Notes under the pieces: model-generated
Told to the model about the DNA's origin: nothing
The model's input: the letters and a program-made list of their open reading frames with translations, nothing else
The model's database searches: none
Program-made: the position numbers and the translations under genes
NCBI GenBank assembly: GCA_947037025.1
Contig: CAMQSU010000001.1
Location: 111,522-175,521 of the forward strand
DNA from: an uncultured Clostridia bacterium
GTDB taxonomy: Bacteria > Bacillota > Clostridia > Christensenellales > UBA3700
Length of the DNA: 64,000 nt
Direction of reading: 5' to 3'
Shown here: in pieces, positions 9,675-64,000 of the stretch
How positions within the stretch are numbered: the stretch's first letter is position 1
Layout: every line of letters starts with the position of its first letter

Positions 9675-9705
9675 TATAGATAATACAAAATAAATGAGGT
9701 GTAAA

Positions 9706-11091: not shown

Positions 11092-11101
11092 TTAAATAAT
11101 T

Positions 11102-11136: not shown

Positions 11137-11511
11137 CATTGTTGCAGAAGATAACATTATAATTGCGTAATTATATGATTACATAAAAAACCAAATCGTC
11201 ATAATTAATGATTAACATACACAAGCTGATCAACATAAGTAAACACACTAGTATCCAGCTGCAATTTGTTATTTATATGCACCTTAAACATACTTGATAG
11301 TATCGCATATATATAGATATATATTATATAACGCGTGCATGCGATAAAAAAAAGGAATAAACAATCAAATTTTAATTGTAATATTGACAATATTTTGCTA
11401 TAATGTATATGTGAAGTAGTACCTTTAGGACTGCATTTGCGTAATTACTGAAGAAAAATTGACAAATTAAGAGATGGGTATCTCACAAAGAGAACTCAAG
11501 CGAGGTGCAAT

Positions 11512-12216: not shown

Positions 12217-12321
12217 TATACATATATAAACAGGTAATATAGTAAATGAAAAGTAGTATTTAGACTAATTAAGTTAGCGCGTGCATAAAATATAAATGGC
12301 GCTACTAGCGGAGGTGCAAGT

Positions 12322-13104: not shown

Positions 13105-13494
13105 AAGCATTTGCAAATTGCAAAAATGCAGCAAGTTTTAATATAATAAAAACTAATTATATTAACTAGTAAAATTGCATAAAAATTTATCTAATAATTT
13201 TGCTTGAAAACTTAATAAGTATATTAATTTTATATGGATATAATTGATTATATAATAGATAAATTATCAAATTAAAATAAACAAATTTATTTGCAAATAT
13301 AATAAAATTAAATTAGCAAATTTTAATTGAGTTGGCTGCAAAATATAATAATGTAACAGACAAAATTATTTATAAAAACCAAAATAAACAAATATAAAAA
13401 CTATTTAAAAAAAATACATTTTTTTTGCAATTGGCATAGCGGCGGCTTTGCTTTATTGCAGCACAATAATATATATAACACGCATGGAGGAAGT

Positions 13495-43360: not shown

Positions 43361-43707
43361 GGGGTTGTTCTGGATTCGACAGGCGGTCGGGAGATGTTGT
43401 AAGCATGCCGTAGGCTCGGCTACGTTAAAACGGAAACAAAACTTAAACGCTAAAAATAATAATTACGCTTTAGCTGCCTAGGCAGAGAGCTGTCGTGCTA
43501 GTAGTCCTGTCGGACTAGATTTCGGCATCATTTAGACGGGAAGGTCACTTTGCATTTGGTGCGCGGCATAGTGATAAATTAGCACCTTACCAAAGTATAG
43601 CCCGCCAACAGGCGATACTAAGGGAAATTCAAATTGTTGCGCTAAGCATGTAGAAAGTAATGTCAAACACTGTTTGGACACGGGTTCAATTCCCGTCAGC
43701 TCCACCA
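43361..43707 (+). ncRNA. ssrA: transfer-messenger RNA (tmRNA)
   Basis: The 5' end is GGGGTTGTTCTGGATTCGACAGG. The 3' T-arm and acceptor read GGACACGGGTTCAATTCCCGTCAGCTCCACCA. The tag reading frame is GCT AAA AAT AAT AAT TAC GCT TTA GCT GCC TAG, giving (A)KNNNYALAA. Confidence 0.9.
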
Positions 43708-43714
43708 CAACATA

Positions 43715-43757
43715 ACGCACATAAGTCTTTTAATTAAGTCTTATGTGCGTTTTTTTT
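43715..43757 (+). terminator. rho-independent terminator after ssrA
   Basis: ACGCACATAAG (43715-43725) pairs with CTTATGTGCGT (43740-43750), followed by a T8 run. Confidence 0.8.
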
Positions 43758-43836
43758 ATTTGTGTGTTGCAAATTTGTGATCAGTGTGGTATAATATATA
43801 TGAAAAATAATCCACTACAAAAGAGGAGTTTGTAAA

Positions 43837-44418
43837 ATGAAAAATGAAAAAAAAGCAAATTTAAATAAAGTAGAAAATACAGGAAATTCCAAGAGTAAAA
43901 TTAGTAAAGCCATGATCGGAAAAATAGTATTTATTGTTAGTGTTGTCTGCGCGCTAATAAGTGGTATAATTCTTATTGTAATGCTTAATTTGGGTAAAGA
44001 TGATTATAACCTAGGTATTAGAATTGCTTGTGTAGCGGTATTTGTGGTAGGGCTTTTAGCTGCAACTTTCTCATTTGAATTTAGACCACGATTAAGACTA
44101 AAGGCTAAATCGACTCCTAAAAATATAAATGGTAAAACTGCGCAATCTAAAATAAGAATTTCAAATCAAGCGTTTAATCAATTGTTAGTAGCGGGAAAGG
44201 ACTATACAGTGGCTGGGGAAGTCAATGGTATGGTGTTAGTTAAAAAGGAAATAAAATGGATGTATTTTACTGAAGGTAAAACTGGAATACAGTCTGCATT
44301 CACTATCACAACAGATATAGATACTTTCGCATTCCAAGTTAACGGAGATAGCATTTTACTTGTTCCAACAGATTTAATTCTATCAATTTACGGTGATGGA
44401 GATGATGAAGAAGATTAA
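43837..44418 (+). CDS. hypothetical membrane protein (2 TM plus soluble C-terminal domain, acidic tail)
   Basis: 193-aa ORF with an AGAGGAG RBS and two clear TM helices. No recognised motif. It is the first gene after ssrA. Confidence 0.5.
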   Translation: MKNEKKANLNKVENTGNSKSKISKAMIGKIVFIVSVVCALISGIILIVMLNLGKDDYNLGIRIACVAVFVVGLLAATFSFEFRPRLRLKAKSTPKNINGKTAQSKIRISNQAFNQLLVAGKDYTVAGEVNGMVLVKKEIKWMYFTEGKTGIQSAFTITTDIDTFAFQVNGDSILLVPTDLILSIYGDGDDEED

Positions 44419-44440
44419 GGCAATGATTGAGATGATTTAA

Positions 44441-44524
44441 GACTTTATGTTGTTTCGCACTAAATGATTTGTTAAATAAGACTTTAGGTAGTGCAACAAC
44501 TAGGGTGAATTTAAGACTTTAGGT
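44441..44524 (+). repeat. cluster A of GACTTTA(G/T)GT direct repeats (3 copies)
   Basis: Copies lie at 44441, 44480 and 44515. The ~100-bp block aligns by eye, at roughly 80% identity, with 48190-48290. Confidence 0.8.
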
Positions 44525-44740
44525 TTGTATTAGGTATTAGCATTTGAACAAGTTTCTTGACAAAGCGATATCTAATACTTTTTTTTGCCAATTCTAAGCT
44601 TAAACGGCATAATTCAAGCCTTATTGTGATAGTTAATTGCAATTGGGCTTGTTTTTTTATTTTGCAAACAATCAAGAAATGTCTACGAAATACATCATTT
44701 AACCACTTTTGAACCCTTGTGTCCATTTGGATATAATTTT

Positions 44741-45856
44741 TCAAAATGCATTAGGGGTATTATATAGAATCGTAGTGTGTGGGCGTTCATTATTGTAGAA
44801 ATACATATATGCGCTTATTCTTTGCTCAAATTTATTTACGGAACGATAATCCACTCTATAAATTTCTTCTTTTTTTAAATTAGAGAAAAATGCCTCCATA
44901 ACAGCATTGTTTTGCGGGCTAGCAGTAGGCGAGAAAGAGTGAGTCACATTTAAGTTCGTAAGCAGTTTTTGAAATGCATATGCTGTGTATTGTGATCCGC
45001 GGTCACTATGAAAAATTAACCCGTCATTTGGGGTTCGATCGCAATACGCTTTTTTAAATGTAGATGTGGTTAGATTGGTGCTATTCTTTTTAGACACTTT
45101 GTGAGCAATTAGTTTTCTTGAATACAAATCTAATATGGCGCAAATATAAAGGGTAGTCCCGTGTACTCTAAATTGTGTAATGTCTGATACCCAAACTTGA
45201 TTAGGTTCATTTGCCGTAAATTTAAGTCGTATATGGTCGGTTTTTCTTTTATGCAGTTTTGTATAGGTTTTTTTCGTTTCGTTTCTAATACTTTTAATGT
45301 TCATATCGTACATCAGTTCTGCCACCATTCGTTCGCTAACTACTATATCTTGATTATTAAGCACTGCTTTAATTTTCTTGCTCCCATAAATACGATTACT
45401 ATCTTCATATATCGACTTGATTTTTTCGCTTAGCATAAGTCGTCTAGTGAAATAAGATTTTTCAGTTTTTTTATTTCTAAGTAAATGATTATAAAATGTG
45501 CCTCGATCAACTTCCATAGCCTCACATAATATGTGAACGCTATACTGACCATGCAGTTTAGAGAGTTCTTGTAATCTTTCTTGCAAGTTAGATTTAACGG
45601 TGCAATTGACAGTTTTTAAGATGCATATAATGTCATCTTTTCTATTGCATAGTTTTTGCAATTTGATATAATTTTTATTACTTACTAATGAGTTTTCTTC
45701 GTCCTTGGGAGTAGTGTAGTCATTAATTATGCTGTATATAGAACTTCGAGCCATATTGTATTTTAACTTAAGTGTTAATACCGGCTCACCTTGTAAATAT
45801 GCGTTAACTATTTCTTTCTTAATCGTGTCTGTTAGTTTTATCATAATAACCTCCAA
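44741..45856 (-). mobile_element. IS3-family transposase gene (single fused ORF; element ends not identified)
   Basis: It has an N-terminal HTH, an HTH_21-like region and an rve DDE core (VWVSDIT ... HSDRGSQY ... NAVMEAFF), plus the NNERPH tail. Confidence 0.85.
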
Positions 45857-48591: not shown

Positions 48592-48882
48592 TGTCCAACA
48601 ACCTTGAATTGACAGGGAGTTGAAATTCACTAATTTACTTGATTTAGGCAAATAACATGTTATTTCACTAATATTTCAATACATATGTAAGTCATTCATA
48701 AAAAGTACAGCAAATAAACTTTGCAATATATCTTAATAGTGCTTTTTATGTAAATATATGCTATAATTAGATAATAACATAGGTTTTGATAATTTATTAA
48801 ATAGTTTATATCTTAAGGTTTTACTATCTAATGTGATATTTGATATAACTTAATGATATATCTAAAATTTGGGAGGATAAAT

Positions 48883-51807
48883 ATGAATATATATGATCAC
48901 ATACGTGAAATTAGCGAGTTGAATGATAATGGACAATTAGTGATTTTCGTAGGTGCTGGTGTCTCAAAGAATGTAAAAGGTATGCCTTCATGGAAAGAAC
49001 TAATTAAATCTATGGCTGAATCCATAAATTATACAAAATGTAATAACTGCAAACAAAAGGTTGATGGGTGTAATGATCAATGCAGATTTATAGACCATTT
49101 TTCGGTGGAAGAATTTCTTAAAATTCCACAATACTTATTCAATGAAAATCCAGAATTATATAAGGAAAAGCTTAAAGAAAATGTTAGTGGTGAAATTATA
49201 GATGCTAAATTAAGTGGGCTGATATTTGATATCTTGCCACAGCATATTATTACTACAAATTATGACAAACTATTAGAATCATCAAATAACATCAATAGGC
49301 TTATTTTTGATGTAGTATGTAATGACAAAGAATTAATTTCTTCAGACAGGGCTCGTCACATTATAAAAATGCATGGTGATATTAGTGATATAGATAGTAT
49401 TGTGCTAAAAGAATCTGATTATTTAAATTATAGCCAAAAAAAAATATTAATTGAAACATTTATTAAATCATTAATGATTAATCACACTTTTGTTTTTTTG
49501 GGTTATTCGCTAAATGACAATAATATTAAACAAATAATTAGTTGGATTAATTATTTAAAAGAGCAAAATGGACTAGCGGAGAAAAAAACATTGGGGTACT
49601 TAGTGCTCGATGATGCAACTGTTTCTCAATTGGAACTAGATTATTATGCAAGAAGCGGTATTCAAATAATAAATATAAACAAGCTAGTGCCATGCGAATC
49701 AAGTCCATCTGAATTAGAAGAAATAGGCAAAAGACTTTACACTTTTTTGTTGTTGATAAAAGATGAGAGTTTGTACGATTCATATAACAGAGAAGCTGTT
49801 TTTGCAAAGAAAAGTGAATATTTAAGCAAGTACCCTTTTATTAGCTATCGGAAACTTCTTAAATACATCGGAATAAAATCATACAAGAAAATATCCGGTA
49901 CGTTGCAGCTGCATAATGTGGAAGATTACAAATGGTTGGTGACTAAGTTGCAGTCTGAAAATTCGGTTGGTACTCAAATTAGGAGGTTGTTCCTAAATGC
50001 TGAAATTAATTGGTTGACTTTATTTGAGCCTAAATGCAGCCATAGGATAATTCAACACCATAATGCACAATTAGACGAACTTAATTATAATATATATCTG
50101 GAAAACAGATATTATAAATTGTATGAGACAATAATAAAAGGGGAAAATGATTTCGAAAAGCTATTCTATATTAATAAAATGTATCCTTATAGTAAGCAAG
50201 CAAAAGAAATATTAAATGACATAGGTGCGAATGTTAGTGTGATAGACAACATTGCCAAATTACAATATACATATAACAATACTTTGATGAAAAGTTCCGA
50301 TACATACACCTTTAATTGGAAAGATTACGACGCAATGTTTAGTTCAATTTTGAATAACAAAGAAAAAGAATTATTTCGTTTCTTTAGTGATATTAGAGAT
50401 ACAAACAAGGAAGATCTTGAATTCATGCAAAGTAAGTTATCTAAGTTAATTGATCATTATAAAAACTTTAACACGATTTTTGCATATGGCGGTGATTTAT
50501 CGATTTTATACGATATTCAAAATATCGCTTATGAATATTATGTTTATCATTATGAATATTTTATTTTTTCGGAAAGATTCTATGTAGTGAGAGGCATATT
50601 AAGTCCATATATAGAGGCGATGTTGTGTACGAATGGTAATAGGGGGGAAGCCTACCACCCCTTTGATGAAAGGAAAAAACGCAATGTCGATCGATATGGA
50701 CTTAATAGATATGATATTGATATGATTATAAAGTATATTGATTCCAAGACACTTGAGTTATGGATTCGGAAACATGAAGTAAAGCAGCTTAATATAAATA
50801 ATCCTGAAGGATTTATTCAAGGATTTATTAACTTAATAGATTCGCTGATAAAAATACCGAATGGTTTTTATTTGGGATATGAACAAATGCTAAGCAATTA
50901 TTTGATAGTATGTGCTTATTGTGACTTGACTGATATACAATTAGAAAAAATTATGAGCAGACTGGTAGAGTTATTCGACAATAAAGATCGATTTGATATA
51001 TATTTCGCACGTCCACCATATTACCGAGATAAATTTGAGTATTTTATTAGATTTGTTAAACTTGCTAACTGCAAGACTACACATTTGAGCATAGTTAAGA
51101 TATTATTCAGTAGCAGTAAATTTTTCAGTGATATTTACCCAAATGTAGGATCATATCATATCAATGAGTTAAATTGCTTGCTAGCAATTGGTGAGAATGA
51201 GGAAGAACTTGATATTAACACGATTTTTGAATCCGTCGAAGATATTGCGCAAAAAATAATAATTATTGGTTGTATGAAGGACGTAATTGCTCGAAAAAAC
51301 TTAAAGGATGAATACAAAAAAATTCTACAGGATAATTACAATAAAATTCCTATGTTTGATTTGCTAGGTTTTATTTTTGGCGATTGGATTGATGTTAATG
51401 AAGAAGTAAAAAAGTATTTGCTATCATTAGTTATATCGAATAGCAGAGTAAATAATACAAGGTCATTTCCTGATTATCTCCTTGGCGCAATTGAGATAGT
51501 AGTAGTATGCCACTTAAAGGGCAAAATAAAAGATATTAATTCAATTTCAATGTTTAGGGACGAGGACGAAACCTTAGACTTTCTAATTGAGCCAAATACC
51601 TTCGACTACTCAAAAGTTGATTTATCCAATTATAAATGGCAGAATATTGCCAATTGCAAGAAATATAAAGAGATTTTAATTAATCATAAAAAAGATATAA
51701 TTAAGACAATACAAAAGCATATAGAGGTGAAGACTGTTAGCAGGTTTGAGCTTGGATTTTTATTTAAATTTTTAGTTGAAGAAGAAGAAATGTGGAAATA
51801 TATGTAA
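48883..51807 (+). CDS. defence-associated sirtuin: N-terminal SIR2-like (SIR2_2) domain plus ~700-aa helical C-terminal region, DSR2-like architecture
   Basis: It has LVIFVGAGVSKN (nucleotide loop), HIITTNYDKLLE (TxNxD) and IIKMHGDI (catalytic His), all within the first ~180 aa. The total length is 974 aa from MNIYDH, which follows GGGAGG. Confidence 0.7.
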   Translation: MNIYDHIREISELNDNGQLVIFVGAGVSKNVKGMPSWKELIKSMAESINYTKCNNCKQKVDGCNDQCRFIDHFSVEEFLKIPQYLFNENPELYKEKLKENVSGEIIDAKLSGLIFDILPQHIITTNYDKLLESSNNINRLIFDVVCNDKELISSDRARHIIKMHGDISDIDSIVLKESDYLNYSQKKILIETFIKSLMINHTFVFLGYSLNDNNIKQIISWINYLKEQNGLAEKKTLGYLVLDDATVSQLELDYYARSGIQIININKLVPCESSPSELEEIGKRLYTFLLLIKDESLYDSYNREAVFAKKSEYLSKYPFISYRKLLKYIGIKSYKKISGTLQLHNVEDYKWLVTKLQSENSVGTQIRRLFLNAEINWLTLFEPKCSHRIIQHHNAQLDELNYNIYLENRYYKLYETIIKGENDFEKLFYINKMYPYSKQAKEILNDIGANVSVIDNIAKLQYTYNNTLMKSSDTYTFNWKDYDAMFSSILNNKEKELFRFFSDIRDTNKEDLEFMQSKLSKLIDHYKNFNTIFAYGGDLSILYDIQNIAYEYYVYHYEYFIFSERFYVVRGILSPYIEAMLCTNGNRGEAYHPFDERKKRNVDRYGLNRYDIDMIIKYIDSKTLELWIRKHEVKQLNINNPEGFIQGFINLIDSLIKIPNGFYLGYEQMLSNYLIVCAYCDLTDIQLEKIMSRLVELFDNKDRFDIYFARPPYYRDKFEYFIRFVKLANCKTTHLSIVKILFSSSKFFSDIYPNVGSYHINELNCLLAIGENEEELDINTIFESVEDIAQKIIIIGCMKDVIARKNLKDEYKKILQDNYNKIPMFDLLGFIFGDWIDVNEEVKKYLLSLVISNSRVNNTRSFPDYLLGAIEIVVVCHLKGKIKDINSISMFRDEDETLDFLIEPNTFDYSKVDLSNYKWQNIANCKKYKEILINHKKDIIKTIQKHIEVKTVSRFELGFLFKFLVEEEEMWKYM

Positions 51808-52312
51808 ACAGACATGATCTTTTTCAATGCTTAGTGAAATGAAGTGTTTTTCACGTATGAAATAAGCGTGTGGCTTTTATACCACGCGATTGTTTTATTT
51901 GTAAATGCATACATTTTTATAAACTTGTTGCTGTGATTCAGGGTAATACTGTAAACTTTATTAATCTGATAATAACATTATTTTGACCGATTAATCAATC
52001 TATCATAAATTTGAAGATAATTGCGTTATTTCAGTACTCGAGCTTGTAAAGTAGATAATATTATGATATAATATACTAAGATATTAAGTGTCTGAAATAA
52101 TTAAGTAATATTATAGTTTAACAGTTAAGGCATATAGGAAAGATTACGAGCGTTTCAAATAGGGATTTAGTAATGTATGATACAAAACAAAAAGAGCAAA
52201 GTGTTTGTTTGGAAAATTATAGATGGAAAGAGGGCAGGAATCATAGGATGATATCCATACCTCTTTACTGAAATCTTTGCAAGTAATTATGGTAAAAATA
52301 GGAGGGGAATAA

Positions 52313-53236
52313 ATGTATTTTAAACCAAGAATATTTATTAGTTCGACGATGACTGACAAGTTGCAACTAAGGGCGAAAATTAAGTCTTTTTTCAGCTCAA
52401 TCGGGGCTGAGGTTGCATTATATGAAAAAGACTTAACTCCATCGATTGATAAAATGACTTATAGACAAGACATCTTAGCAACAGATTTTGTTATATTTAT
52501 CATTGATGATAAATATGGAAATAAAACAGACGCGGGTATTTCCGGAACGCAAGAAGAGTTCGAGATTGTATGTAAAAACAAAAAGCCTTGTCATGTATAT
52601 CTCAAATTAATCGAAAAAACAGATGAAGCAAATAGGTTTGAAAGGTTAATTATACAGAAAGGGTTTTCGGTTTATTATTATAAAGATAACAAAGATCTTC
52701 TAAGTAAAATTAAATCCACATCTTTTACTTTGGCTAAAAACATAGTAGATTTTAATATTATTAATCAAGGTGTTGATCCTGCTGTATTGTCTTATTTGGC
52801 AGTTAAAAATGATTATGGTGAAGCGTTAATTTATTGTAAGATCTTTGAAAGGGTGTTGGAAATATCGCGCGCTACCGGGTTTGATTGTTTGAATTCTAAC
52901 TTGTTAATTGCTACGATGGAAGATATCGTTGAAAACAAATTATGTAGGAGTCCTAAATTCATTGATAAAAAATTGGATGAATTAGTGAATAAATTCTGCG
53001 AATCTATTAGTCATGCTATGCAACAAATAGGGAGTAAATCTGTTCCTAATAGTAACGTGATTTCTTATGAATTTCCATATGTGGGTCAAATAAGTTTGTC
53101 TAGAAATATTTGGAATCCAGTAATTGACCATGATTGGCAAGAACCAGCGGTCCAAGATATCAATTTTACGTATCGTGAGTGTAAAAATTATATTGCTAAC
53201 ATGGGATTAGAGGCTGATATACTAAAGTCATTGTAG
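52313..53236 (+). CDS. DUF4062-like (TIR/nucleoside-deoxyribosyltransferase-like fold) domain protein with unknown C-terminal domain
   Basis: The N-terminus reads RIFISSTMTDKLQLRAKIKSFFSSIGAEVALYE...ATDFVIFIIDDKYG...GISGTQEEFE, which is the pattern I recall for DUF4062. It has an AGGAGG RBS and its own terminator. Confidence 0.5.
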   Translation: MYFKPRIFISSTMTDKLQLRAKIKSFFSSIGAEVALYEKDLTPSIDKMTYRQDILATDFVIFIIDDKYGNKTDAGISGTQEEFEIVCKNKKPCHVYLKLIEKTDEANRFERLIIQKGFSVYYYKDNKDLLSKIKSTSFTLAKNIVDFNIINQGVDPAVLSYLAVKNDYGEALIYCKIFERVLEISRATGFDCLNSNLLIATMEDIVENKLCRSPKFIDKKLDELVNKFCESISHAMQQIGSKSVPNSNVISYEFPYVGQISLSRNIWNPVIDHDWQEPAVQDINFTYRECKNYIANMGLEADILKSL

Positions 53237-53408: not shown

Positions 53409-55349
53409 ATGAAAAAAACATTTTCAATTAATAATAGGCGATATCTAGGAAATAAGTTCAAATTAAATGATTTCATCACGGGTGTAGTGAATTCTGAGTG
53501 CGTTGGTATTAATACGGTTGCGGATATTTTTTCTGGTACTGGAGCAGTTGCTTCTGCATTCTTGGATAAGAAAATTATTACTAATGATATCTTATATTCC
53601 AACTATATATGTCACTATGCATGGTTCAGTCCAGAAAAATTCAGCGTAAAGAAGATTGCTGGTTACATTAATAATTATAATGGATTTGATCAATTATCCG
53701 GAAATTATATGTCTGATAACTTTTCTGATACGTTTTTCAGTAATGTTAACTGTATGAAAATCGGATATATTAGAGAAAATATAGAGCACGAATTCAGTGC
53801 TGGAAATATGAATAAAAGAGAAAGAGCGTTGTTGATTTGCTCGTTGTTATATGCTATGGATAGAATAGCAAATACTTGTGGGCATTATGATGCGTATAGA
53901 AAAGATGGTGATTTAGATAGATCATTAGAACTGTTAATGCCTCTCCTTGAAATTAATAATAATGCAAATAACTTGTGTTTTAATGAGGATACTAATGAAT
54001 TAATTAAAAAAATTGAAGTCGATTTAGTGTATATAGACCCACCATACAATTCAAGGCAATATTGCGATGCTTATCACTTATTGGAGAATGTCGCTAGATG
54101 GGATAAGCCTTTAGTTAAAGGTGTGGCTAGAAAAATGGACAGGGCCGAGCTAAAAAGTGATTACTGCACGAAAGCTGCGCCGTTAGCATTTGAAGAGTTG
54201 GTTTCTAATATTAAAGCTAAATACATACTTCTCTCATATAATAATATGGGTGAAAAGGGTAATGACAGATCAAATGCAAAATTATCGGATGAAGATATTA
54301 TGAGAATACTATCTTCTAAAGGCAAGGTGAAGATATTCAAGAAAGAGTACAAATCATTTACTGCAGGTAAGTCAAGTATAATTGATAATGAGGAAAGGTT
54401 GTTTTTATGCGAGTGCTATGATTATGAAAGTAAAGAGTTAATTCAATCACCACTAAATTATGTGGGAGGAAAATATAAATTATTGCCTCAAATATTGCCG
54501 CATTTTCCGAAACATTACTCTCAATTTATTGATTTAATGTGTGGCGGTGGAAATGTAGGTATAAATGTGAATTGTAATAAAGTAGTATTTAATGATTGTA
54601 ACAAGTTGTTGAGATTTATGTTTGGTACATTTAAAAGCTTAGATAAGGATATAATTTTTGAAACAATTGATAGAATTATTGAAGATTATAACTTGTCAAA
54701 TACAGCTGCTCATGGATACTCGTACTATGGATGTAATAGTAAAGATGGTTTAGGACAGCACAATGAAGCTGGATACAAAAAACTGAGACAAGATTTTAAC
54801 AATGTTGCTAAATTAGAATATAATTACTACATAGTTTTATATGTTATAATCGTATATGCATTTAATAATCAAATACGTTTTAATAAAAAAGGTGAATATA
54901 ATTTACCAGTAGGTAAGAGGGATTTTAATTGCAAAATGAGAAATAAGTTGTCTAAATTTGTTGATCGACTTAAAAACGGCGATTTTACATTGGCAAGCGA
55001 TGACTTTAGAGAATTAGATAAAAGCAGTTGGGATAAAAATACATTTGTATATATTGATCCACCATATTTAATTGGGTGCGCAACATACAATGAACAGGGC
55101 GGTTGGACAGAAAAATCTGAGCAGGAACTATTAAAATATTTGGATGAATTGCATTGTAAGGGTATAAAGTTCGCACTTTCTAATGTTTTTTCTAGTAAGG
55201 GAAAGACGAATGATATATTAAAAAATTGGGCAAAGGTAAATGCTGATAAATATAGAGTTATTTATTTAAATTATAGTTATTCAAATTCAAATTATCAAAT
55301 CAAGGATAAAATATCTCCGACTGAAGAAGTGTTGATAGTAAATTATTAA
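53409..55349 (+). CDS. fused double N6-adenine DNA methyltransferase (two Dam/D12-class domains), type IIS-like
   Basis: Domain 1 has RRYLGNKFKL...FSGTGAV...VYIDPPYNSRQY. Domain 2 has LNYVGGKYKLLP...MCGGGNVG...VYIDPPYLIG. Both AdoMet and DPPY motifs are therefore present twice in one 646-aa chain. Confidence 0.85.
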   Translation: MKKTFSINNRRYLGNKFKLNDFITGVVNSECVGINTVADIFSGTGAVASAFLDKKIITNDILYSNYICHYAWFSPEKFSVKKIAGYINNYNGFDQLSGNYMSDNFSDTFFSNVNCMKIGYIRENIEHEFSAGNMNKRERALLICSLLYAMDRIANTCGHYDAYRKDGDLDRSLELLMPLLEINNNANNLCFNEDTNELIKKIEVDLVYIDPPYNSRQYCDAYHLLENVARWDKPLVKGVARKMDRAELKSDYCTKAAPLAFEELVSNIKAKYILLSYNNMGEKGNDRSNAKLSDEDIMRILSSKGKVKIFKKEYKSFTAGKSSIIDNEERLFLCECYDYESKELIQSPLNYVGGKYKLLPQILPHFPKHYSQFIDLMCGGGNVGINVNCNKVVFNDCNKLLRFMFGTFKSLDKDIIFETIDRIIEDYNLSNTAAHGYSYYGCNSKDGLGQHNEAGYKKLRQDFNNVAKLEYNYYIVLYVIIVYAFNNQIRFNKKGEYNLPVGKRDFNCKMRNKLSKFVDRLKNGDFTLASDDFRELDKSSWDKNTFVYIDPPYLIGCATYNEQGGWTEKSEQELLKYLDELHCKGIKFALSNVFSSKGKTNDILKNWAKVNADKYRVIYLNYSYSNSNYQIKDKISPTEEVLIVNY

Positions 55350-55358
55350 GGAGGAATT

Positions 55359-57344
55359 ATGAGCGAGATTAAATTTAAAAGTTATTGCTGGTGTGTAGGA
55401 ACTACTAGTTATAGGACTAAAAATTACGGTTTAAGTATAGAATTGCAATTAGATTTATTGGATAGATTTTTGCAACTCGAAAGCAGTCAAAATCAAGACT
55501 GGAGAGAATTGCAAGCTGCTTACTATTACTACTTGAAAAAAAACGGGTTTGTACAGGGTGATGCATTACGTCCAGATAAAGATGCTCGTGAAAAAACTTC
55601 AGGTATGGTTGATATAGGGCTATTGACTCAGCAAAGAAAATTGACAGAAGCCGGTGAGGCATTGCTGTTAATGAGTCGTAATAAAGATTTTAATGATGGT
55701 AATGAAATGCAAATACAAGCAGATAGTTATTTGTATTTTAAACAGTTGCTGAAGACTTCTATAACAGTAGAAGGTAAGATAATCAGACCATTTATAGTGT
55801 TCCTTTATTTATCGTCCAAATTAGATGGATTATCTATTGAAGAATTTGCATACTTCATGCCGATGTGTGTAGATAATATTACTACTCAGCGCATTATTGA
55901 AGAGATTAAGTTGTTTAGACTTGGTAAGGTAGACTTAGATGATGCGATATTTAGTGTAGTTGAAAAGATGGACAACTATGTTAGTGCTTTTGATTTGTTA
56001 TCTAAAAGCACAGTCGTTGATGCAGATCTAATTTGCACAATTGGGTTTAACCGTAAAAGCAAGTCGGTAGCAAAGTATGATACTATATTCTTAGATATAT
56101 ATAATGCTTTAAATAACATATATATTAAAGAGGATAATGACGTATCGGAGTTATATGAAGCAATTTGTAAGATTAAGGGCAACACTAAAGTGCTTTGGAA
56201 AAAGAAGTTTTTTGGCAAAAATATCAAAAGCTTAATATTGGAACAGGGAAAGTCAATAATGCAACATACTGAGTTCGATTCCGCTAAAACAGTACAGGAT
56301 ATAAAAAGATTATTTTTTAAGACATTGCATACATTTAAAGTTAAAGCAACACTTGCTGATTACAAGGACCTGAACAGAAGATATTTCATGTTATCTGATT
56401 GTATATTGTTCAAAGATGGGCGCGTTGAAATTGATGTTTTGCCAAAAGCATATATTAAACCAATCATAGATGGATTATATAATCAGGCATACATAAAGTT
56501 TGATCTTAAAGGTCAGGATTTGCCTTTATATGAAATTGACAATAATTTCAAAACTTCTTTGAGTGGATTATATAAGGAATTAAGTAATTCATTGGGCGTG
56601 ACTGTTTCAAATGCTGAAGAAGCAAAGAATATAGTTAGGGATGTACGATACAGCAGGTTTAATCAAATGTTAGATGAGAAATATAGTAAGAGCCAATTGG
56701 TTAATCTACTAAGCATGTTTGAGGATCGAAGCGATGACGAGTTGAATAAATACATAACTGATGCAGCGCTAGTACCTACATTATATGAATATATTGTAGG
56801 TATAGCTTGGTATCAAATCAGCGAACGACAAGGCGATATTTTAGAATATATTAATTTATCTTTAGATGCTAATTTATTGCCAAAGTCCCATGCTGGAGGA
56901 TTAATGGCTGACATTGTGTATCAGTATGAAGCTAATCAGTACTATCCTAAACATTCATTATTAATTGAAGCAACATTAAGTGAGAAAGGTGGGCAACGAA
57001 TAATGGAGATGGAGCCTGTTTCTAGACATCTAGGAGAATATTCTATTGCTAATAAGGGGAGTGAATGTTATTGTGTATTTGCTCCCACAAACTTAAATCC
57101 AAATATAGTGTGTGATTTCAGAATGAGAAAAAATGCTTCGTATGTTAAATTTGATGGAACAGATAGTATTAGAGGACTAAAGATTATACCTTTTGCAAGC
57201 AGTGAATTAAAAACAGCTTTAATTAATGATATTAGTTACAAGAGTTTATATGAAATTTTTGCTGATGCACACAATTCAGAGGCCGAAGATATAGACTGGT
57301 ACGCGGCGGAAATTGTGGACAGGCTAAATCTATGCGTTCAATAG
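55359..57344 (+). CDS. putative type IIS restriction endonuclease (AlwI-family-like), partner of the double methylase
   Basis: It starts 9 nt after the methylase stop, with an AAGGAGG RBS, and is 661 aa. The N-terminal W.VGTTSYR...KDAREKTSGMVDIGLL resembles what I recall of the AlwI/MlyI/N.BstNBI family. The C-terminal region has a D...E.(T/K)-type candidate (LMADIVY...LLIEATL). The call rests mainly on context. Confidence 0.5.
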   Translation: MSEIKFKSYCWCVGTTSYRTKNYGLSIELQLDLLDRFLQLESSQNQDWRELQAAYYYYLKKNGFVQGDALRPDKDAREKTSGMVDIGLLTQQRKLTEAGEALLLMSRNKDFNDGNEMQIQADSYLYFKQLLKTSITVEGKIIRPFIVFLYLSSKLDGLSIEEFAYFMPMCVDNITTQRIIEEIKLFRLGKVDLDDAIFSVVEKMDNYVSAFDLLSKSTVVDADLICTIGFNRKSKSVAKYDTIFLDIYNALNNIYIKEDNDVSELYEAICKIKGNTKVLWKKKFFGKNIKSLILEQGKSIMQHTEFDSAKTVQDIKRLFFKTLHTFKVKATLADYKDLNRRYFMLSDCILFKDGRVEIDVLPKAYIKPIIDGLYNQAYIKFDLKGQDLPLYEIDNNFKTSLSGLYKELSNSLGVTVSNAEEAKNIVRDVRYSRFNQMLDEKYSKSQLVNLLSMFEDRSDDELNKYITDAALVPTLYEYIVGIAWYQISERQGDILEYINLSLDANLLPKSHAGGLMADIVYQYEANQYYPKHSLLIEATLSEKGGQRIMEMEPVSRHLGEYSIANKGSECYCVFAPTNLNPNIVCDFRMRKNASYVKFDGTDSIRGLKIIPFASSELKTALINDISYKSLYEIFADAHNSEAEDIDWYAAEIVDRLNLCVQ

Positions 57345-57491
57345 AAATAATAAGCAAGCTTTTTCAATATGTGTAAAAGAAATAAATAAATTGACACAAA
57401 TTACAAAGCTGCAAGTCATTAATACGGGTTATAACAAAGAAAATTGCATATCGAAAATTGTTGGTCGCATAGAATGATTAAAGGAGAAATA

Positions 57492-59552
57492 ATGGAGAAA
57501 GAAAATAAGTTGTTTGACAGAGCGAATAAAATATTAGTAGAATTATTTGGAGAAAATGCAATTTTTAGAGATGGTCAATTCGAAGCCATAGAAGCCGTAA
57601 ATATAAACACAAGGACGATTGTAGTACAAAAAACGGGTTGGGGAAAAAGTCTAGTTTACTTTTTGTCAACAAAGATTTTTAGAGAAGATGGCAAAGGTGT
57701 AACAATAATTATCAGTCCTTTGTTAACTTTGATGGCTAATCAAGTTGATTCAGCAAAAGTATATGGCTTGAATTGTGAAATTATGAATTCAACTAATAAA
57801 AATTGTCATGCTGAAATATTCGCAAAACTAAAATCAAATGAAGTTGATGTATTGTTCACTACTCCTGAAACATTATTTAGTGCAATTAAAAAAGAATTAA
57901 CTAATATTAAAATAGGATTTCTCGTTATTGATGAAGTTCATTGCATATCGGATTGGGGGCATGATTTTAGGCTTGAATATTGTAAATTGAAAGAAATTAT
58001 AGGATTGTTGCCTCAAAATGTGCCAATATTAGGAACAACAGCAACAGCAAATGATAGAGTTGTCTCTGATTTGAAAGATCAATTTGGTAGTGATGTGTAC
58101 ATATCAAGAGGTCCATTGACTAGAGAATCGTTAGCAATAGATGTCATCAAAATGCCTGATAAAGCGAGTAGATATGCATGGATATTAGACAATATTAACA
58201 AATTAGATGGTAGTGGTATAATATATTGTTTAACCAAAATGGATTGTGGATATTTGACTGAATTTCTTGATAAAAATGGTGTATCGGCAATGTGGTATTG
58301 TTCAAATAACAATGCAGAAGAATATCTATTTGAAGCTGAAAGAAAGTTCATGAATAATGAGATAAAAGTGCTCGTTGCAACTATTAAGTTAGGTATGGGA
58401 TATGACAAAGGCGATATAGGATTTGTTATACACTATCAAATGCCAAGTAATGTTGTAGCTTATTATCAACAAATTGGACGTGCTGGTAGAAATATTGACA
58501 AAGCATATGCGATAATGTTAACAGGAAAAGAGGATTCTAGTATTACTAATCATTTTATTAATAATGCTTTCCCATCAAGGAAAGAGGTTGAAAATATTAA
58601 GACTTTGTTAGAAGAAACTAATGGAATGAAAATTGCAGAAATATTATCAAAAGTTAATATTAATCGAAAGAGAGCTTTAAAAGCGATTGAATTTTTAGAA
58701 AAAGATGGTTATATTTTTAAAGAGAATCATTCCTATTATTTGTCACCTAAACCATTCTATTATGATGAAGAAAAATATACTGCTTTAAAAAATATACGAA
58801 ATAGAGAATATTCGGACATGCAGTCATTAATAGAGAGAACTGAATGTTTGAGCAAGTTTGTAGTTAATAGATTAGATGATAATACTGCTGTTAATTGTGG
58901 TAAATGTTCGAATTGTATAGGTCATCATATATTATCTGAAAAAGTTAATGTCGAAAAACTCGAAATTAGTCAAGAATATATTAAAAGTTTGAAAATGCTA
59001 ATTGAGCCAAGGAAGCAATGGACAGATAGAAAACGTTTGACTTATTTTAATTATCAAGGCATTGCGTTGTCTAGATATGGCGATATAGGATATGGCGAAT
59101 TAGTTAAAAGAGATAAGTATTCTAATCAAAAGAGGTTTTGTGATGAATTAGTTGGCAAAAGCAGAGAGTTGCTAATGCCTTATATTAAAGATCATAATAT
59201 TACTCACATCACTTCTATTCCGTCATTAAGAAGCAATATTGTAACTGATTTTGCGAAGAGGTTAGCAAGCGTATGTAAATTGGAATATGTTGAGTTATTA
59301 AGCAAAGTAGTACGTGATAATGATTTTCAGCAAAAAGATATGGAAAATTCATCATTTCAAGAGCGTAACGCTATAGAATCATTCGAATTTATAGAAGGAA
59401 GAAGTGTTCCTTTAAATATTATTCTAATTGATGATGTTGTTGATTCAAAATGGACTCTTACAGTATGTGGGCACAAATTGATGGAACATGGATGCAAGTT
59501 AGTGTTCCCGTATGCACTAGCTGATAGTTCGCAAGGAGGTAGCAATGAATAG
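57492..59552 (+). CDS. RecQ-family helicase fused to a C-terminal ComFC-like phosphoribosyltransferase domain
   Basis: RecQ motifs are present: QKTGWGKSLVY, IDEVHCISDWGHDFR, GTTATA and QQIGRAGR, plus the Zn motif CGKCSNC. The C-terminus carries the PRPP-loop motif NIILIDDVVDSKWTL. The start is at MEKENK, after AAGGAG. Confidence 0.8.
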   Translation: MEKENKLFDRANKILVELFGENAIFRDGQFEAIEAVNINTRTIVVQKTGWGKSLVYFLSTKIFREDGKGVTIIISPLLTLMANQVDSAKVYGLNCEIMNSTNKNCHAEIFAKLKSNEVDVLFTTPETLFSAIKKELTNIKIGFLVIDEVHCISDWGHDFRLEYCKLKEIIGLLPQNVPILGTTATANDRVVSDLKDQFGSDVYISRGPLTRESLAIDVIKMPDKASRYAWILDNINKLDGSGIIYCLTKMDCGYLTEFLDKNGVSAMWYCSNNNAEEYLFEAERKFMNNEIKVLVATIKLGMGYDKGDIGFVIHYQMPSNVVAYYQQIGRAGRNIDKAYAIMLTGKEDSSITNHFINNAFPSRKEVENIKTLLEETNGMKIAEILSKVNINRKRALKAIEFLEKDGYIFKENHSYYLSPKPFYYDEEKYTALKNIRNREYSDMQSLIERTECLSKFVVNRLDDNTAVNCGKCSNCIGHHILSEKVNVEKLEISQEYIKSLKMLIEPRKQWTDRKRLTYFNYQGIALSRYGDIGYGELVKRDKYSNQKRFCDELVGKSRELLMPYIKDHNITHITSIPSLRSNIVTDFAKRLASVCKLEYVELLSKVVRDNDFQQKDMENSSFQERNAIESFEFIEGRSVPLNIILIDDVVDSKWTLTVCGHKLMEHGCKLVFPYALADSSQGGSNE

Positions 59553-60510
59553 TAATTCAGAAATGATTGTAATACTATGTAGTAGATTATGTATGGGCGA
59601 ATCAATAAAGCCGTTAGAGTCGGCAGAATGGAGTAAGTTTGCATTACGTATTAGGGATTCAGGGCTTGAACCGAAAAATTTGTCTGATTTTTCTAAAGAT
59701 GAGTTAGTTAAGAAGTTGTTAATAAAAGATGAATTTGCTCAAAGAATTTTAGATTTAATAGGTAGGTCTGTAAGTTTATTTATTGAGCTTGAGAGATATT
59801 TTAATATTGGTATCAAAATCGTAACTAGAGCTGATAAAGCGTATCCAAATAAATTATCAAGAAATTTAGGAAATAGCAAGCCACCATTTTTTTATTACGC
59901 AGGCGATATAAATATTTGTGACGATGAGTCAATTGGATTTGTTGGATCTAGGAATATATCAGAAACCGATATCAGTAATGTGCAAGAGTTGGTAAATAAA
60001 GCAAATAAGTTAGGATATACTATTGTATCTGGTGGTGCAAAAGGTGTAGATTCAATTGCGACTAATCAATCATTATTAAATGGTAGTGCTGTTGTTGAAT
60101 TCGTTGCTGACTCGATGATTAAGAAGATAAAAGTAGCTAATTATAGTAAAGCAATAAGAGATGGTCGGTTAGTAGTACTTTCTGCAGTTAATCCTGATGG
60201 AGGATTTAATGTTGGTAATGCTATGAGTAGAAATAAGTTTATTTATACTAGTTCAAAGGCTACAATAGTTGTAAAAACTGACTACAATAAAGGCGGAACA
60301 TGGGCGGGTGCAATTGAGAATATGCGACAAAAGTGGAGTCCAGTATATTGTGTAGAAAATAATCGATATGAAGGTAATAGGGCGTTGATTTCACAAGGAG
60401 CAATAGCCATTAATACTGAATGGGATTTTAATATTGAAAAGAAAGATAAAGTTGAACGAATTCAAGAAATTAGCATTTTTGAATTGTTGAATAGTAATAA
60501 TAAAGTATAG
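59545..60510 (+). CDS. DprA/Smf-like (SLOG/Rossmann) protein
   Basis: It has VTRADKAYPNKL...PPFFYYAGD...IGFVGSRNIS...GYTIVSGGAKGVDSIA...MSRNKFIY...GGTWAGA, which is the DprA core pattern. It overlaps the RecQ-PRTase gene by 8 nt. Confidence 0.75.
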   Translation: MNSNSEMIVILCSRLCMGESIKPLESAEWSKFALRIRDSGLEPKNLSDFSKDELVKKLLIKDEFAQRILDLIGRSVSLFIELERYFNIGIKIVTRADKAYPNKLSRNLGNSKPPFFYYAGDINICDDESIGFVGSRNISETDISNVQELVNKANKLGYTIVSGGAKGVDSIATNQSLLNGSAVVEFVADSMIKKIKVANYSKAIRDGRLVVLSAVNPDGGFNVGNAMSRNKFIYTSSKATIVVKTDYNKGGTWAGAIENMRQKWSPVYCVENNRYEGNRALISQGAIAINTEWDFNIEKKDKVERIQEISIFELLNSNNKV

Positions 60511-60559
60511 TGATAGAAAAAATTATTTTAGACGTAATCATTATTCTTAATATCAGCAT

Positions 60560-60586
60560 GCAAGGATGTTATTCATCCTTGCATTT
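60560..60586 (+). terminator. terminator-like hairpin after the dprA-like gene
   Basis: GCAAGGATG (60560-60568) pairs with CATCCTTGC (60574-60582), followed by ATTTT. Confidence 0.6.
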
Positions 60587-60762
60587 TGCATGTTCAATGT
60601 GTTATATAGTAGAATTGCGAACCTAAAATTTAAAAATTTGCAAAATTATGCCATTTAACTGCAATTGATGTTGTTAATATTATTTTTCTGTCAAAATTAA
60701 TGAATTATATGGTATAATATGGGAAAAGATTAATAAATAATATTTATAAATAAGGAGGGTGT

Positions 60763-61473
60763 ATGACTGCAATACCCAATCAAAGAGAATATTTAGCTAA
60801 AGGTGAGAAATTTAAAAATCATGTTAAAGAGTTCGATAAATATCTTAGAACCGACGAGTGCATTATTGTACATATAGATGGGGTCGATTTTACGAGTGGA
60901 TATTATAAAAAATTGAAGGTTCCATATGATTACAATTGCTTTAAAGCCATATGTAATACTGCGGTTAAACTATGTGGTGAAATAAAAAGTGCACGACTTT
61001 GTTATGTAGCGAATGATGAAATAGTAGTAATACTAGATGGGGCTGAAATCAAGGAGAACTTTCACAATAGAATACAGAAAATATCATCTATATTGGCTAG
61101 TATGTGCTCTGTATATTTTATTGCTGAATTAGAAAACATCATAGCTTCAGAATTTCCACATAATAAGGGATATGCAGTGCTGAAGGATAATGCTGTTTTT
61201 GCTGCAAAATGTTTTAATTTGGAGAAGCATTATATTAATGAATATTTTCAATGGAGACAATATGGATGTAAAAAATCTATTTTTGATAAAAGATTGAATT
61301 ATGATGGTCAGGATGAGTGGGTGAAAAATGGCGCTGTTGTACTTCATAGTGAGGATAATTGGGTATGCAGAACTGATGTTGATTTAACTAAACATAAGCT
61401 TGTTAGATCACCGCAAAATAAGTTTTATTTTCCTATAGAAGTAAAATTGGATAAAAACATGGGGGCGAAGTGA
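60763..61473 (+). CDS. Thg1-like protein (tRNA-His guanylyltransferase family 3'-5' nucleotidyltransferase)
   Basis: Blocks align by eye to eukaryotic Thg1 as I recall it. IIVHIDGVDF matches VVVRLDGRNF. CYVANDEIVVIL matches AYGQSDEYSFVF. NRIQKISSILAS matches RRASKFMTHVAS. YFQWRQYGCKKS matches YLSWRQADCHIN. The metal-binding acidic residues are conserved. Confidence 0.75.
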   Translation: MTAIPNQREYLAKGEKFKNHVKEFDKYLRTDECIIVHIDGVDFTSGYYKKLKVPYDYNCFKAICNTAVKLCGEIKSARLCYVANDEIVVILDGAEIKENFHNRIQKISSILASMCSVYFIAELENIIASEFPHNKGYAVLKDNAVFAAKCFNLEKHYINEYFQWRQYGCKKSIFDKRLNYDGQDEWVKNGAVVLHSEDNWVCRTDVDLTKHKLVRSPQNKFYFPIEVKLDKNMGAK

Positions 61474-61476
61474 AAT

Positions 61477-62427
61477 ATGGATATTAATAAGACTATAAAT
61501 ACAAAATATTTAGAAGAATGCTTCCGCTTGGTTGATACTCTAGAGTTAGGGAGCAGTAAGGACTATAAACAAACCGTAAATTTATTTGTATTGAATAATG
61601 TCAATGATAAATTTGATTATCAATGTTTGAAGTCATTAATTAGAAATAACTTAGCCAACTATGTTTTCAATAGACGTAAGATAGATGATTATATAAAAGA
61701 TGGTACAGTTGTAGAATCCGGATTTGACGCAAGGGATAAACTAGTTGAAATAAGCGAAAATGCCTTAGATAAGGAAAATTTTGGAGCTGGCGGCGAATTA
61801 GGTGAGATACTATTGTATATATTTTTGGAAGGTTTTTGCGGTAGTAAAAAACTTCTATCTAAAGTCGAAATCAAAACTAATAATAAAGATTATGTTAAGG
61901 GATTTGATGGAGTTCATTTTAACATAAAAAAAACATTAGATGGGGAAGTTTATCAAATAATTTTTGGTGAATCTAAAATTGTAACTAATCTTAATAAAGC
62001 CATTTCGGAAGCGTTTGATTCTCTGATAGGCTGCTATGAGAATAAGGCAACTGAATTTTCTTTGTTAGATGAGAGCATTATGAATGAGTTCGCTGTTGAC
62101 AATGAAACCGTGGAGATGTTAAAAAAAATTCTAATTCCTAAATATCAAAGTGCAAATTGTTTATGTGAAGTTGAGCATGCTTTTGGTATTTTTATTGGTT
62201 ATACAATTCAATATAGCGAAGATAATAGGAATCTGCATAAAAAGGCAATGATTGATACTCAAATTAAAAGTGATATTGAGAAAGTGAAGGTAGTAATAGC
62301 GAATAAGATAGCAAAAACCTACCATGGCAATAACTCTGATTATTATATATATATCATGCCTTTTAATGATGCAAAAGTTGACAAAAAAGAAATCATGGAA
62401 TATATTGCTGGTAGGAGGATGAATTAA
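61477..62427 (+). CDS. hamA: Hachiman HamA-like protein (DUF1837, PD-(D/E)xK nuclease fold)
   Basis: It has GELGEILLYIFLE...LSKVEIKT...KGFDGVHF...IFGESKI (a D...ExK core). It starts 3 nt after the Thg1-like stop and is followed immediately by an SF2 helicase. Confidence 0.7.
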   Translation: MDINKTINTKYLEECFRLVDTLELGSSKDYKQTVNLFVLNNVNDKFDYQCLKSLIRNNLANYVFNRRKIDDYIKDGTVVESGFDARDKLVEISENALDKENFGAGGELGEILLYIFLEGFCGSKKLLSKVEIKTNNKDYVKGFDGVHFNIKKTLDGEVYQIIFGESKIVTNLNKAISEAFDSLIGCYENKATEFSLLDESIMNEFAVDNETVEMLKKILIPKYQSANCLCEVEHAFGIFIGYTIQYSEDNRNLHKKAMIDTQIKSDIEKVKVVIANKIAKTYHGNNSDYYIYIMPFNDAKVDKKEIMEYIAGRRMN

Positions 62428-62428
62428 A

Positions 62429-64000
62429 TTGAAATTATCATTTGGGGATGTCTTATTAAATGAGATAGAGAATAATTTATATTTCAAATCATTGTATAAT
62501 GAAGTACTAAGTTTATATGGGGACAAAATAATTAATGGAACACTAAATAATAGTTTTAGTGATGATAAAATCAATGATATCTTAAGATTTGCAGATATTT
62601 TATCGAAATCAAATGTCACAAATAAATTGAGTTTTCATAGGAATTTAGCTCAAGATATTGTGATAATAATGTCGGTTGTATTTGCACATGATAAAAACAT
62701 ACATGAAAAAGTTAGTTTTTACGAAAAAAATATTTTTAGCACTGTATCCAATTACTCGGGATTTAGCAAGGTTAAGGGGGGCGATAAAGTGGCGAATAAT
62801 GCTGATTACTTTTCCGACTTTGCTAATAATATAAAAAAAGAGTTTAATAGAGTTGACGGAAGTCAGGATGTTTTTTATTTCGATTCTCAAAAAAAAGCCT
62901 TGAATATGATGGAAAATATGCAATACTATAGTTTTTCTGCACCAACTTCAATGGGAAAAACATTTATAATTAAAAATTTCTTAAAAAATAAAATTTTAGA
63001 TAGTAATTGCAGATGTATAGTATTAATTTTGCCGACTAAAGCACTTATAAATGAGTTGGAAGAAGACCTAATTCTAGAGAGCTGCACAGAGTTGAACTTG
63101 CATAATTTCGTCGTGCTAACAATTCCAACACAAATTAAGTTGTTTGCAGCAGAGCGAAAAATATTGTTGTTTACGCCTGAAAGAATGTTACAGGCATTAA
63201 ATGATGAATCAATTAAAGATATTGATTACTTTTTTGTCGATGAATCACAGAAAATTTTCGAGTCAGATGAAAGAGCGCCTTTGTATTATAAGCTGCTGGA
63301 AAAAGTCAATGCTACAATGCCGTTAACTAAAATAATATTTTCCTCTCCATACACTGAAAATCCTGAAATACTTTTGGAATTGATTAATAGTCCATATATT
63401 CAAAATAAGAAAGAATTAGCCGGATCTGACAAGTTTGATTTTACGCCAGTAGCACAGAAGCAATTTTTGATTGATGTTCACAATAATAAAGTTAAAGTAT
63501 ATAGTCAATTAGCAAGTGATTTTGTAAATATTACTTGTAACTCTAAAATTACTTGGACTGGCTTGATTGCAGAACAAACAAATTCAGGTCCTAGTATTGT
63601 TTATTGCAAATCAAAAGCTGATGTCTTAAAGTATGCGAATGAATATTCTAATCTTATAAAAGAACACGAAACCCTAGACAGTGAAATACTAAACTTGATT
63701 CATCTTGTTGAAACAGAAATAAATCCAGACTATTATTTAATTCCCTTATTGAAGAAAGGTATTGCTTTTCATATGGGTATTATGCCTTCACAAGTGAGAA
63801 AAAAAGTTGAAAATCTAATGAAAAATGGAGTTTTAAAAGTTGTATTTTGCACTTCAACGCTTCTTGAAGGCGTAAACTTGCCAGCAGTTAATATTTTTGT
63901 CCTATCACAAAAAAAGGGACATGGTAAATTAAGTGTACTAGAGTTCAAGAATTTAATCGGTAGAGCTGGAAGAATTAAATATAATTTATGGGGTAATGCT
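62429..64000 (+). CDS. hamB: Hachiman HamB-like SF2 (Ski2-like) helicase, 5' part; the CDS runs off the window
   Basis: This ORF is not in the supplied track because it is open to the window end. The TTG start at 62429 lies 10 nt after AGGAGG. My translation has no stops through nt 64000. Motif I is SAPTSMGKTF, motif II is FVDESQ, and FHMGIM is also present. Motif V is CTSTLLEGVNLPA and motif VI is IGRAGR. Confidence 0.75.
   Translation, partial: MKLSFGDVLLNEIENNLYFKSLYNEVLSLYGDKIINGTLNNSFSDDKINDILRFADILSKSNVTNKLSFHRNLAQDIVIIMSVVFAHDKNIHEKVSFYEKNIFSTVSNYSGFSKVKGGDKVANNADYFSDFANNIKKEFNRVDGSQDVFYFDSQKKALNMMENMQYYSFSAPTSMGKTFIIKNFLKNKILDSNCRCIVLILPTKALINELEEDLILESCTELNLHNFVVLTIPTQIKLFAAERKILLFTPERMLQALNDESIKDIDYFFVDESQKIFESDERAPLYYKLLEKVNATMPLTKIIFSSPYTENPEILLELINSPYIQNKKELAGSDKFDFTPVAQKQFLIDVHNNKVKVYSQLASDFVNITCNSKITWTGLIAEQTNSGPSIVYCKSKADVLKYANEYSNLIKEHETLDSEILNLIHLVETEINPDYYLIPLLKKGIAFHMGIMPSQVRKKVENLMKNGVLKVVFCTSTLLEGVNLPAVNIFVLSQKKGHGKLSVLEFKNLIGRAGRIKYNLWGNA

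Follow-up and report, generated by a model that had tools for sequence, protein, structure and literature searches.

To our knowledge, bacterial Thg1-like proteins (TLPs) have no established physiological role beyond the repair of tRNA 5' ends in vitro, and activity on DNA is not known for any TLP. The TLP of Bacillus thuringiensis (BtTLP; PDB 4kgk and 4kgm) is a 3'-5' polymerase of tRNA 5'-end repair, whose active-site, metal-binding carboxylates D30, D75 and E76 correspond to D29, D76 and E77 of hThg1 (PMC3701042). TLPs extend simple RNA duplexes bearing 3' overhangs, and BtTLP adds 1-2 nucleotides (nt) (PMC11404450). In Hachiman defence, the helicase HamB senses 3' single-stranded DNA (ssDNA) ends and prefers 3' overhangs (PMC12278908). 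Hachiman loci with extra genes have been published: in Pez-Ham of Streptococcus, a PezAT toxin-antitoxin module upstream of hamAB controls Hachiman expression and takes no part in defence (PMC13064477), and a Hachiman with a trypsin-MBL module has also been described (bioRxiv 10.1101/2025.09.03.673762). In the present study, we analysed a gene for a Thg1-like protein (gene 1) situated directly before the hamA and hamB genes of a type I Hachiman system in an uncultured Clostridia bacterium (GenBank assembly GCA_947037025.1, contig CAMQSU010000001.1, positions 111,522 to 175,521 of the forward strand); this whole stretch of 64,000 nt is referred to as the window. As in Pez-Ham, an unrelated module precedes hamAB, although the upstream gene here encodes a nucleotidyltransferase and not a toxin-antitoxin pair. 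We favour, with modest confidence, the explanation that an autonomous TLP cassette was recombined before an ordinary type I hamAB pair and now heads the hamAB transcript, and that it is not a conserved component of Hachiman.

Three co-directional open reading frames (ORFs) on the plus strand are involved: gene 1 (60763-61473, 236 amino acids (aa)), a diverged TLP identified by Pfam, by PDB matches and by AlphaFold2 (AF2) modelling with Foldseek; hamA (61477-62427, 316 aa), encoding the DUF1837 nuclease effector; and hamB (62429-64000), encoding the superfamily 2 (SF2) helicase, with a TTG start and truncated at the edge of the window. Gene 1 and hamA are separated by 3 nt, hamA and hamB by 1 nt. 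The positions, orientation and gaps claimed in an earlier reading of this DNA from its letters alone (the sequence-only reading) are borne out by the ORF coordinates, and its three domain assignments (Thg1-like, HamA and HamB) proved correct by Pfam and PADLOC matches, whereas its description of Hachiman as a two-gene system is outdated by the published loci with extra genes (PMC13064477; bioRxiv 10.1101/2025.09.03.673762). The hamA product was matched by Pfam HamA PF08878 (E 1.6e-40) and PADLOC HamA1 (E 4.3e-70), with the D...GESK nuclease core legible in 'GFDGVHF...IIFGESKIV'. HamB was matched by PADLOC HamB1 (E 9.4e-151), with legible GKT, DESQ, TSTLLEGVNLP and LIGRAGR motifs, and is 884 aa at full length on an identical metagenome scaffold (L001, 11667-14321). 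Judged by these matches, together with the adjacent co-directional genes and the 1-nt gap, HamAB is an ordinary type I Hachiman with predicted anti-phage activity. It differs in the Thg1-like gene 3 nt upstream, which probably supplies its promoter and which the nearest HamA clades do not have. The best sigma-70-like match of the region (TTGACA-17-TATATT, 11/12) was located at 62378-62406, inside the 3' end of hamA and 23 nt before the hamB start, and could be an internal hamB promoter.

The adjacency of gene 1 and hamAB is confined to one lineage, comprising the window, loci L001 and L033 and one NCBI contig, and these contigs are 99.8-100% identical in DNA wherever comparable. In the closest HamA clades (P0155, P0156 and P0163, 49-50% identity), hamA and hamB form a plain pair and no Thg1-like gene accompanies them, and tblastn for HamA and HamB in approximately 12 distinct loci encoding relatives of gene 1 found 0. 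The closest Hachiman relative has, upstream of hamA, a short ORF of approximately 69 codons (L027, 5779-5988) that ends approximately 12 nt before hamA and is identical across L027-L032.

A closely related copy of gene 1, 89% identical, is present in another defence island, locus L023, where it follows mcrBC and heads a co-directional array (8001-13781) encoding a 195-aa protein, a 750-aa SF2 helicase (mREase_IV/PbeA-like), PDC-S11 (DUF7669) and bSEFIR; no Hachiman was found in the L023 locus. The sole DNA shared between the window and loci L023-L026 is the segment at 60639-61421 (plus strand, 89% nt identity by blastn and MAFFT), with patchy conservation back to a hairpin beginning at 60558, and homology with the L023 copy ends at codon 220 of gene 1, position 61421. 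The hairpin (60558-60584, plus strand) has a perfect 11-bp stem (ATGCAAGGATG / CATCCTTGCAT, arms 60558-60568 and 60574-60584) and a 5-nt loop, with an RNA folding energy of -20.3 kcal/mol (z -4.66) and a short T-tract after it (ATTTTG). The terminator-like hairpin of the sequence-only reading is therefore a real structure, but the terminator scan made no call there; it delimits the gene 1 cassette on the 5' side and may serve as an insulating terminator. It is followed on the same strand by a putative extended -10 promoter element of gene 1's own, TGGTATAAT (TGnTATAAT, 60710-60718), read from the sequence and kept as TGATATAAT at the equivalent position in L023, and by the ribosome-binding site AAGGAGG (60752-60758), which stands 4 nt ahead of the gene 1 ATG and is kept as AAGGAG in L023. 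Hairpin, promoter element and ribosome-binding site are all conserved before the L023 orthologue, while the upstream genes differ (psyrA in the window, mcrC in L023). The possibility that the hairpin is merely the psyrA terminator was set aside, since it accompanies gene 1 into this different context. Because only 60639-61421 is shared with L023 and the upstream signals are conserved, gene 1 is a self-contained cassette of hairpin, promoter, ribosome-binding site and ORF placed in two different islands. Between the two copies, dN/dS is 0.33 over 219 codons, indicating purifying selection; the L023 copy is a 226-aa variant (P0274) from the 90%-identity cluster of gene 1, seen on 7-8 contigs. 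A repeat search revealed no convincing flanking repeats marking a mobile cassette. In the L023 array, the pair of 195-aa protein and 750-aa helicase matches no system-level assignment; the 195-aa protein was considered as a cryptic HamA, a candidate rejected because the comparison shows no likeness to HamA.

Downstream of the shared segment, a lineage-specific junction (61422-61476, plus strand) takes in the final 16-17 codons of gene 1, the stop codon and the 3-nt spacer. Other members of the subfamily to which gene 1 belongs do not conserve this tail, which has low pLDDT at residues 232-236; it is probably a former hamA leader that is read through to the first in-frame stop. Since homology ends at codon 220, the tail and the 3-nt junction are foreign to gene 1, and on this alignment the tight spacing is read as a recombination scar rather than as a sign of long co-evolution. 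We propose that a cassette carrying a defence-island TLP would have recombined immediately upstream of hamA-hamB, with the breakpoint at codon 220, and that the gene 1 ORF would thereafter read approximately 55 nt of foreign sequence and stop 3 nt before hamA. Because the ORF reads through the junction in this way, hamAB is very probably transcribed from the gene 1 promoter, and a scan for terminators and promoters detected neither a terminator nor a strong promoter in the interval from gene 1 to hamA. Thus, of the single operon proposed in the sequence-only reading, the tight spacing and probable co-transcription stand, but a dedicated or co-evolved Thg1-Hachiman unit does not, the adjacency being found in one lineage only. 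A conserved three-gene variant is likewise not upheld; confinement of the adjacency was among the findings that the reading itself had named as speaking against it. Given this confinement, the plain hamAB pairs of the nearest clades and the different genes after the L023 copy, a dedicated Thg1-Hachiman system is unsupported, and gene 1 is, by these genomic comparisons, not a conserved Hachiman component.

The identity of gene 1 as a Thg1 family member was established at several levels. Pfam Thg1 PF04446, the profile check suggested in the sequence-only reading, matched residues 23-152 with 67.6 bits, above the cut-off of 29.2 (E 1.3e-18). In the PDB sequence search, BtTLP (4kgk) was matched with E 3.9e-9 by the single gene 1 sequence and 1.4e-21 by the subfamily profile, and Candida Thg1 was matched as well. 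The Pfam Thg1 C-terminal model found no match in the gene 1 sequence. Nevertheless, the AF2 model (pLDDT 90.4, pTM 0.86) matches 4kgk along its whole length, and hence the C-terminal Thg1 domain is present in the model despite the Pfam miss, giving the full two-domain fold (palm and C-terminal). The top 32 PDB matches in Foldseek were all Thg1/TLP structures, with 4kgk the best (E 3.3e-14, TM 0.69 by query and 0.77 by target, approximately 207 columns). The HIDG and NDE metal-binding residues noted earlier were recovered as H37-I38-D39-G40 and N84-D85-E86 in alignment with BtTLP: D39, D85 and E86 align with D30, D75 and E76, and all three carboxylates are invariant in 15 subfamily members, as is K106, the equivalent of BtTLP K99. 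Gene 1 thus has the fold of BtTLP over approximately 207-230 residues and shares with it the carboxylates, the K99 equivalent and the YFxWRQ motif (PMC3701042), but it is only approximately 22-25% identical, carries another post-WRQ motif and stands in a defence island, with a sister clade that is operon-linked to RNase III. In the alignment, H37 stands opposite BtTLP R28, which like K99 is a basic residue of the nucleotidyl-transfer site, and V52, adjacent to K51, stands opposite the activation-step lysine, BtTLP K43 (hThg1 K44). Judged by fold and residues, gene 1 is predicted to encode a catalytically intact two-metal 3'-5' nucleotidyltransferase with templated addition as its activity.

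The same features bear on another explanation, in which the gene 1 enzyme would produce a nucleotide signal or an adduct resembling a 5' cap, and this product would activate or regulate a downstream effector, by analogy with the related GGDEF, Cas10 and mCpol palms. According to Anantharaman 2010, cited in PMC12657218, the Thg1 palm is homologous to cyclase and Cas10 palms, weak Foldseek matches to cyclases and Cas10 were obtained (E approximately 0.03-0.1), and the activation-site lysine is out of register. However, K106, the lysine of the polynucleotide site, is retained along with both domains of the Thg1 fold, HamA, HamB and the RNase III partners of related TLPs have no recognisable small-molecule sensor domain, and the partners of gene 1 vary by context. 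We therefore regard a signalling role as very improbable.

The subfamily of gene 1 was defined by an exhaustive search of representative proteins; in a word-indexed search, gene 1 alone retrieved itself only and the subfamily profile retrieved 6 proteins. Approximately 15 representative clusters (212-258 aa) align over their full length with E 1e-42 to 1e-15, and canonical Thg1/TLPs rank after them, matching gene 1 at residues ~14-172 only. Scanned viral contigs contained no relatives of the subfamily, and tblastn against plasmids and phages returned canonical TLPs only (25-33% identity). Subfamily loci were drawn from genomes, metagenomes and exact look-up. In the closest clade (L002-L013, L016-L019 and L022, approximately 10 distinct loci), the TLPs are 35-43% identical to gene 1, and every locus carries a co-directional gene for RNase III, with one or two double-stranded RNA-binding domains (dsRBDs), directly upstream of the TLP gene. 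The partner is 273-369 aa long, lies 0-77 nt upstream and has invariant catalytic E/D residues, and the loci come from gut Clostridia/Christensenella metagenome-assembled genomes (MAGs). The RNase III-TLP modules include those at L002 7147-8642, L003 6918-8636, L004 6865-8654, L006 6983-8657, L007 378-2144, L008 1026-2518, L017 118-1894 and L022 4591-6284. In the more distant members L014, L015, L020 and L021, the TLP stands alone, and a neighbour-joining tree places gene 1 as sister to the RNase III-linked clade. No RNase III homologue was found anywhere in the window, where psyrA adjoins gene 1 upstream. The modules thus share the TLP subfamily (35-43% identity in full-length alignment) and a defence-island neighbourhood with gene 1 but differ in that RNase III precedes the TLP there, whereas HamAB follows it in the window.

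Defence genes are found 1.3-3.8 kb from the RNase III-TLP pairs in L002 (PDC-S06), L003 (PRTase), L004 (Wadjet JetC/JetD), L006 (pPIWI_RE genes) and L018 (IetS); in L008-L010, a two-component system and not defence genes stands beside the pair. Because the pairs are often near defence genes, the subfamily is plausibly immune-related; RNase III and TLP together are a candidate for a new pair acting in defence or RNA processing. No PADLOC model matched gene 1, the RNase III partners of its relatives or the 195-aa L023 protein. A literature search found no paper on Thg1 or TLPs with Hachiman, in RNase III operons or as components of defence systems, in agreement with the earlier statement that Thg1 is without a known immune role; within the literature searched, neither the gene 1-hamAB fusion nor the RNase III-TLP pair has been described. 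Directly upstream of the pair in L022 (1551-4303), genes resembling adenylosuccinate synthetase and dCTP deaminase and a deoxynucleoside-kinase gene were observed near a Mob_Pre relaxase gene, and this trio may be part of a mobile element and serve to modify or deplete nucleotides.

These family-wide data also bear on the possibility that gene 1 repairs tRNA 5' ends in the manner of BtTLP after damage by phages or neighbouring toxins, with only a positional link to Hachiman. Fold and carboxylates agree with tRNA-repair TLPs, and large phages commonly carry canonical TLPs (92 phage records), to which a role in tRNA repair is ascribed there (PMC7824862). However, the subfamily is far from canonical TLPs, with the N-terminal part alone matching, the post-WRQ motif is altered (xxCKK), the Thg1 C-terminal domain finds no match at the sequence level, and the conserved partner is an RNase III specific for double-stranded RNA with dsRBDs and not a tRNA-related gene. 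For these reasons, tRNA repair appears improbable as the function of gene 1. In the vicinity of gene 1, Rfam and ARAGORN detected neither a structured RNA nor a tRNA that could be a dedicated substrate, their only finds being a tmRNA and an SRP RNA elsewhere.

Herein, we consider instead that the enzyme may act on ends made by nucleases. As inferred from its family, the TLP would extend a recessed 5' end with the 3' overhang as template. RNase III products bear a 5'-phosphate and a 2-nt 3' overhang, which is the geometry that TLPs use, so the RNase III encoded upstream in the sister clade would most likely supply the TLP substrate, which would account for the conserved operon of that clade. 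In the lineage of the window, which is without this partner, the enzyme might act alone or on the ends left by neighbouring nucleases. HamAB itself would work as in other Hachiman systems, with HamB sensing 3' ssDNA ends and then releasing or activating the HamA nuclease. Among the ideas of the sequence-only reading (tRNA repair, end modification and signalling), end modification would best fit the family-wide association with RNase III.

Such an activity would also offer a rationale for a genuine Hachiman variant of three genes, with the TLP serving HamAB as a functional accessory. The accessory TLP could fill in or cap the 5'-recessed ends that trigger HamB, tuning activation or limiting self-damage, or could mark ends made by HamA. 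The end geometry recognised by HamB (PMC12278908) is that on which Thg1-type enzymes template (PMC11404450), Hachiman accepts add-on modules (PMC13064477; bioRxiv 10.1101/2025.09.03.673762), the spacing is operon-like without a terminator or strong promoter before hamA, the gene 1 lineage has lost its RNase III partner, and in both known contexts (2/2) gene 1 precedes a helicase-containing defence module. Against this variant, the arrangement occurs in a single lineage whose nearest HamA clades have no Thg1-like gene, the junction is a recombination breakpoint within gene 1, and the 89%-identical cassette accompanies unrelated genes in L023. Characterised TLPs, moreover, use RNA and not DNA (PMC3061083, PMC11404450), and the upstream module that has been tested, PezAT, only regulated expression (PMC13064477). 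A three-gene variant is thus possible but unlikely. A broader and still more tentative idea, which we consider rather unlikely, is that the subfamily is a hitherto unrecognised immune enzyme class performing 3'-5' polymerisation on nuclease-made ends, with RNase III as its usual partner, rewired here to HamAB as a functional three-gene variant editing the 3'-overhang ends that trigger HamB.

Several observations nevertheless weigh against the recombined, autonomous cassette that we favour. The 3-nt spacing, the lack of a detected terminator or strong promoter, and the independent placement of both cassettes directly before co-directional SF2-helicase modules could reflect functional coupling; a weak TAAAAT near 61441 is a possible internal hamAB promoter; the contexts of the cassette number only two (the window and L023), which are too few to decide; and, judged from the aligned residues, the replacements K43 to V52 and R28 to H37 suggest that the chemistry of gene 1 may differ from that of characterised TLPs.

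The cassette and hamAB are part of a defence island, which starts beyond the tmRNA gene (43361-43707, tag AKNNNYALAA) and is ordered as an rve transposase, a SIR2 protein, a DUF4062 protein, a D12 methyltransferase/AlwI unit, PsyrT, PsyrA and gene 1. An rve-family transposase gene stands just after the tmRNA gene (the two together at 43361-45856), and an rve-like gene follows hamB at L001 14466-15743; the tmRNA gene and these flanking rve genes suggest a genomic island inserted at ssrA. Within the island, a 984-aa protein bearing a SIR2_2 domain at its N-terminus (ThsA, PDC-S25 or Dsr2-like) is encoded before a 307-aa DUF4062 protein (48853-53236); the latter had no match in PADLOC, and the pair may be an uncharacterised SIR2 system. 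A type II restriction-modification system follows at 53409-57344, consisting of a 646-aa protein with two D12-class methyltransferase halves and a 661-aa AlwI-family endonuclease. Immediately upstream of the gene 1 cassette is a PsyrTA pair (57444-60510), whose genes overlap by 8 nt; PsyrT is a RecQ-like helicase with a C-terminal PRTase/ComF-like region (PADLOC 2.6e-226), and PsyrA is DprA-like (1.6e-88).

For Hachiman, the present locus is cautionary, as the close spacing of genes may be the scar of a recombination event and not the mark of a co-evolved operon, and it also constitutes a natural construct with hamAB probably expressed under a foreign promoter. For the Thg1 family, a diverged TLP subfamily in defence islands, whose gene shares an operon with that of an active RNase III in most lineages and is probably joined to Hachiman in a single transcript in one, provides a concrete substrate hypothesis for reverse polymerases, namely the recessed 5' ends that nucleases leave behind. 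This defence-island TLP subfamily, with its conserved RNase III partner, is the most valuable lead.

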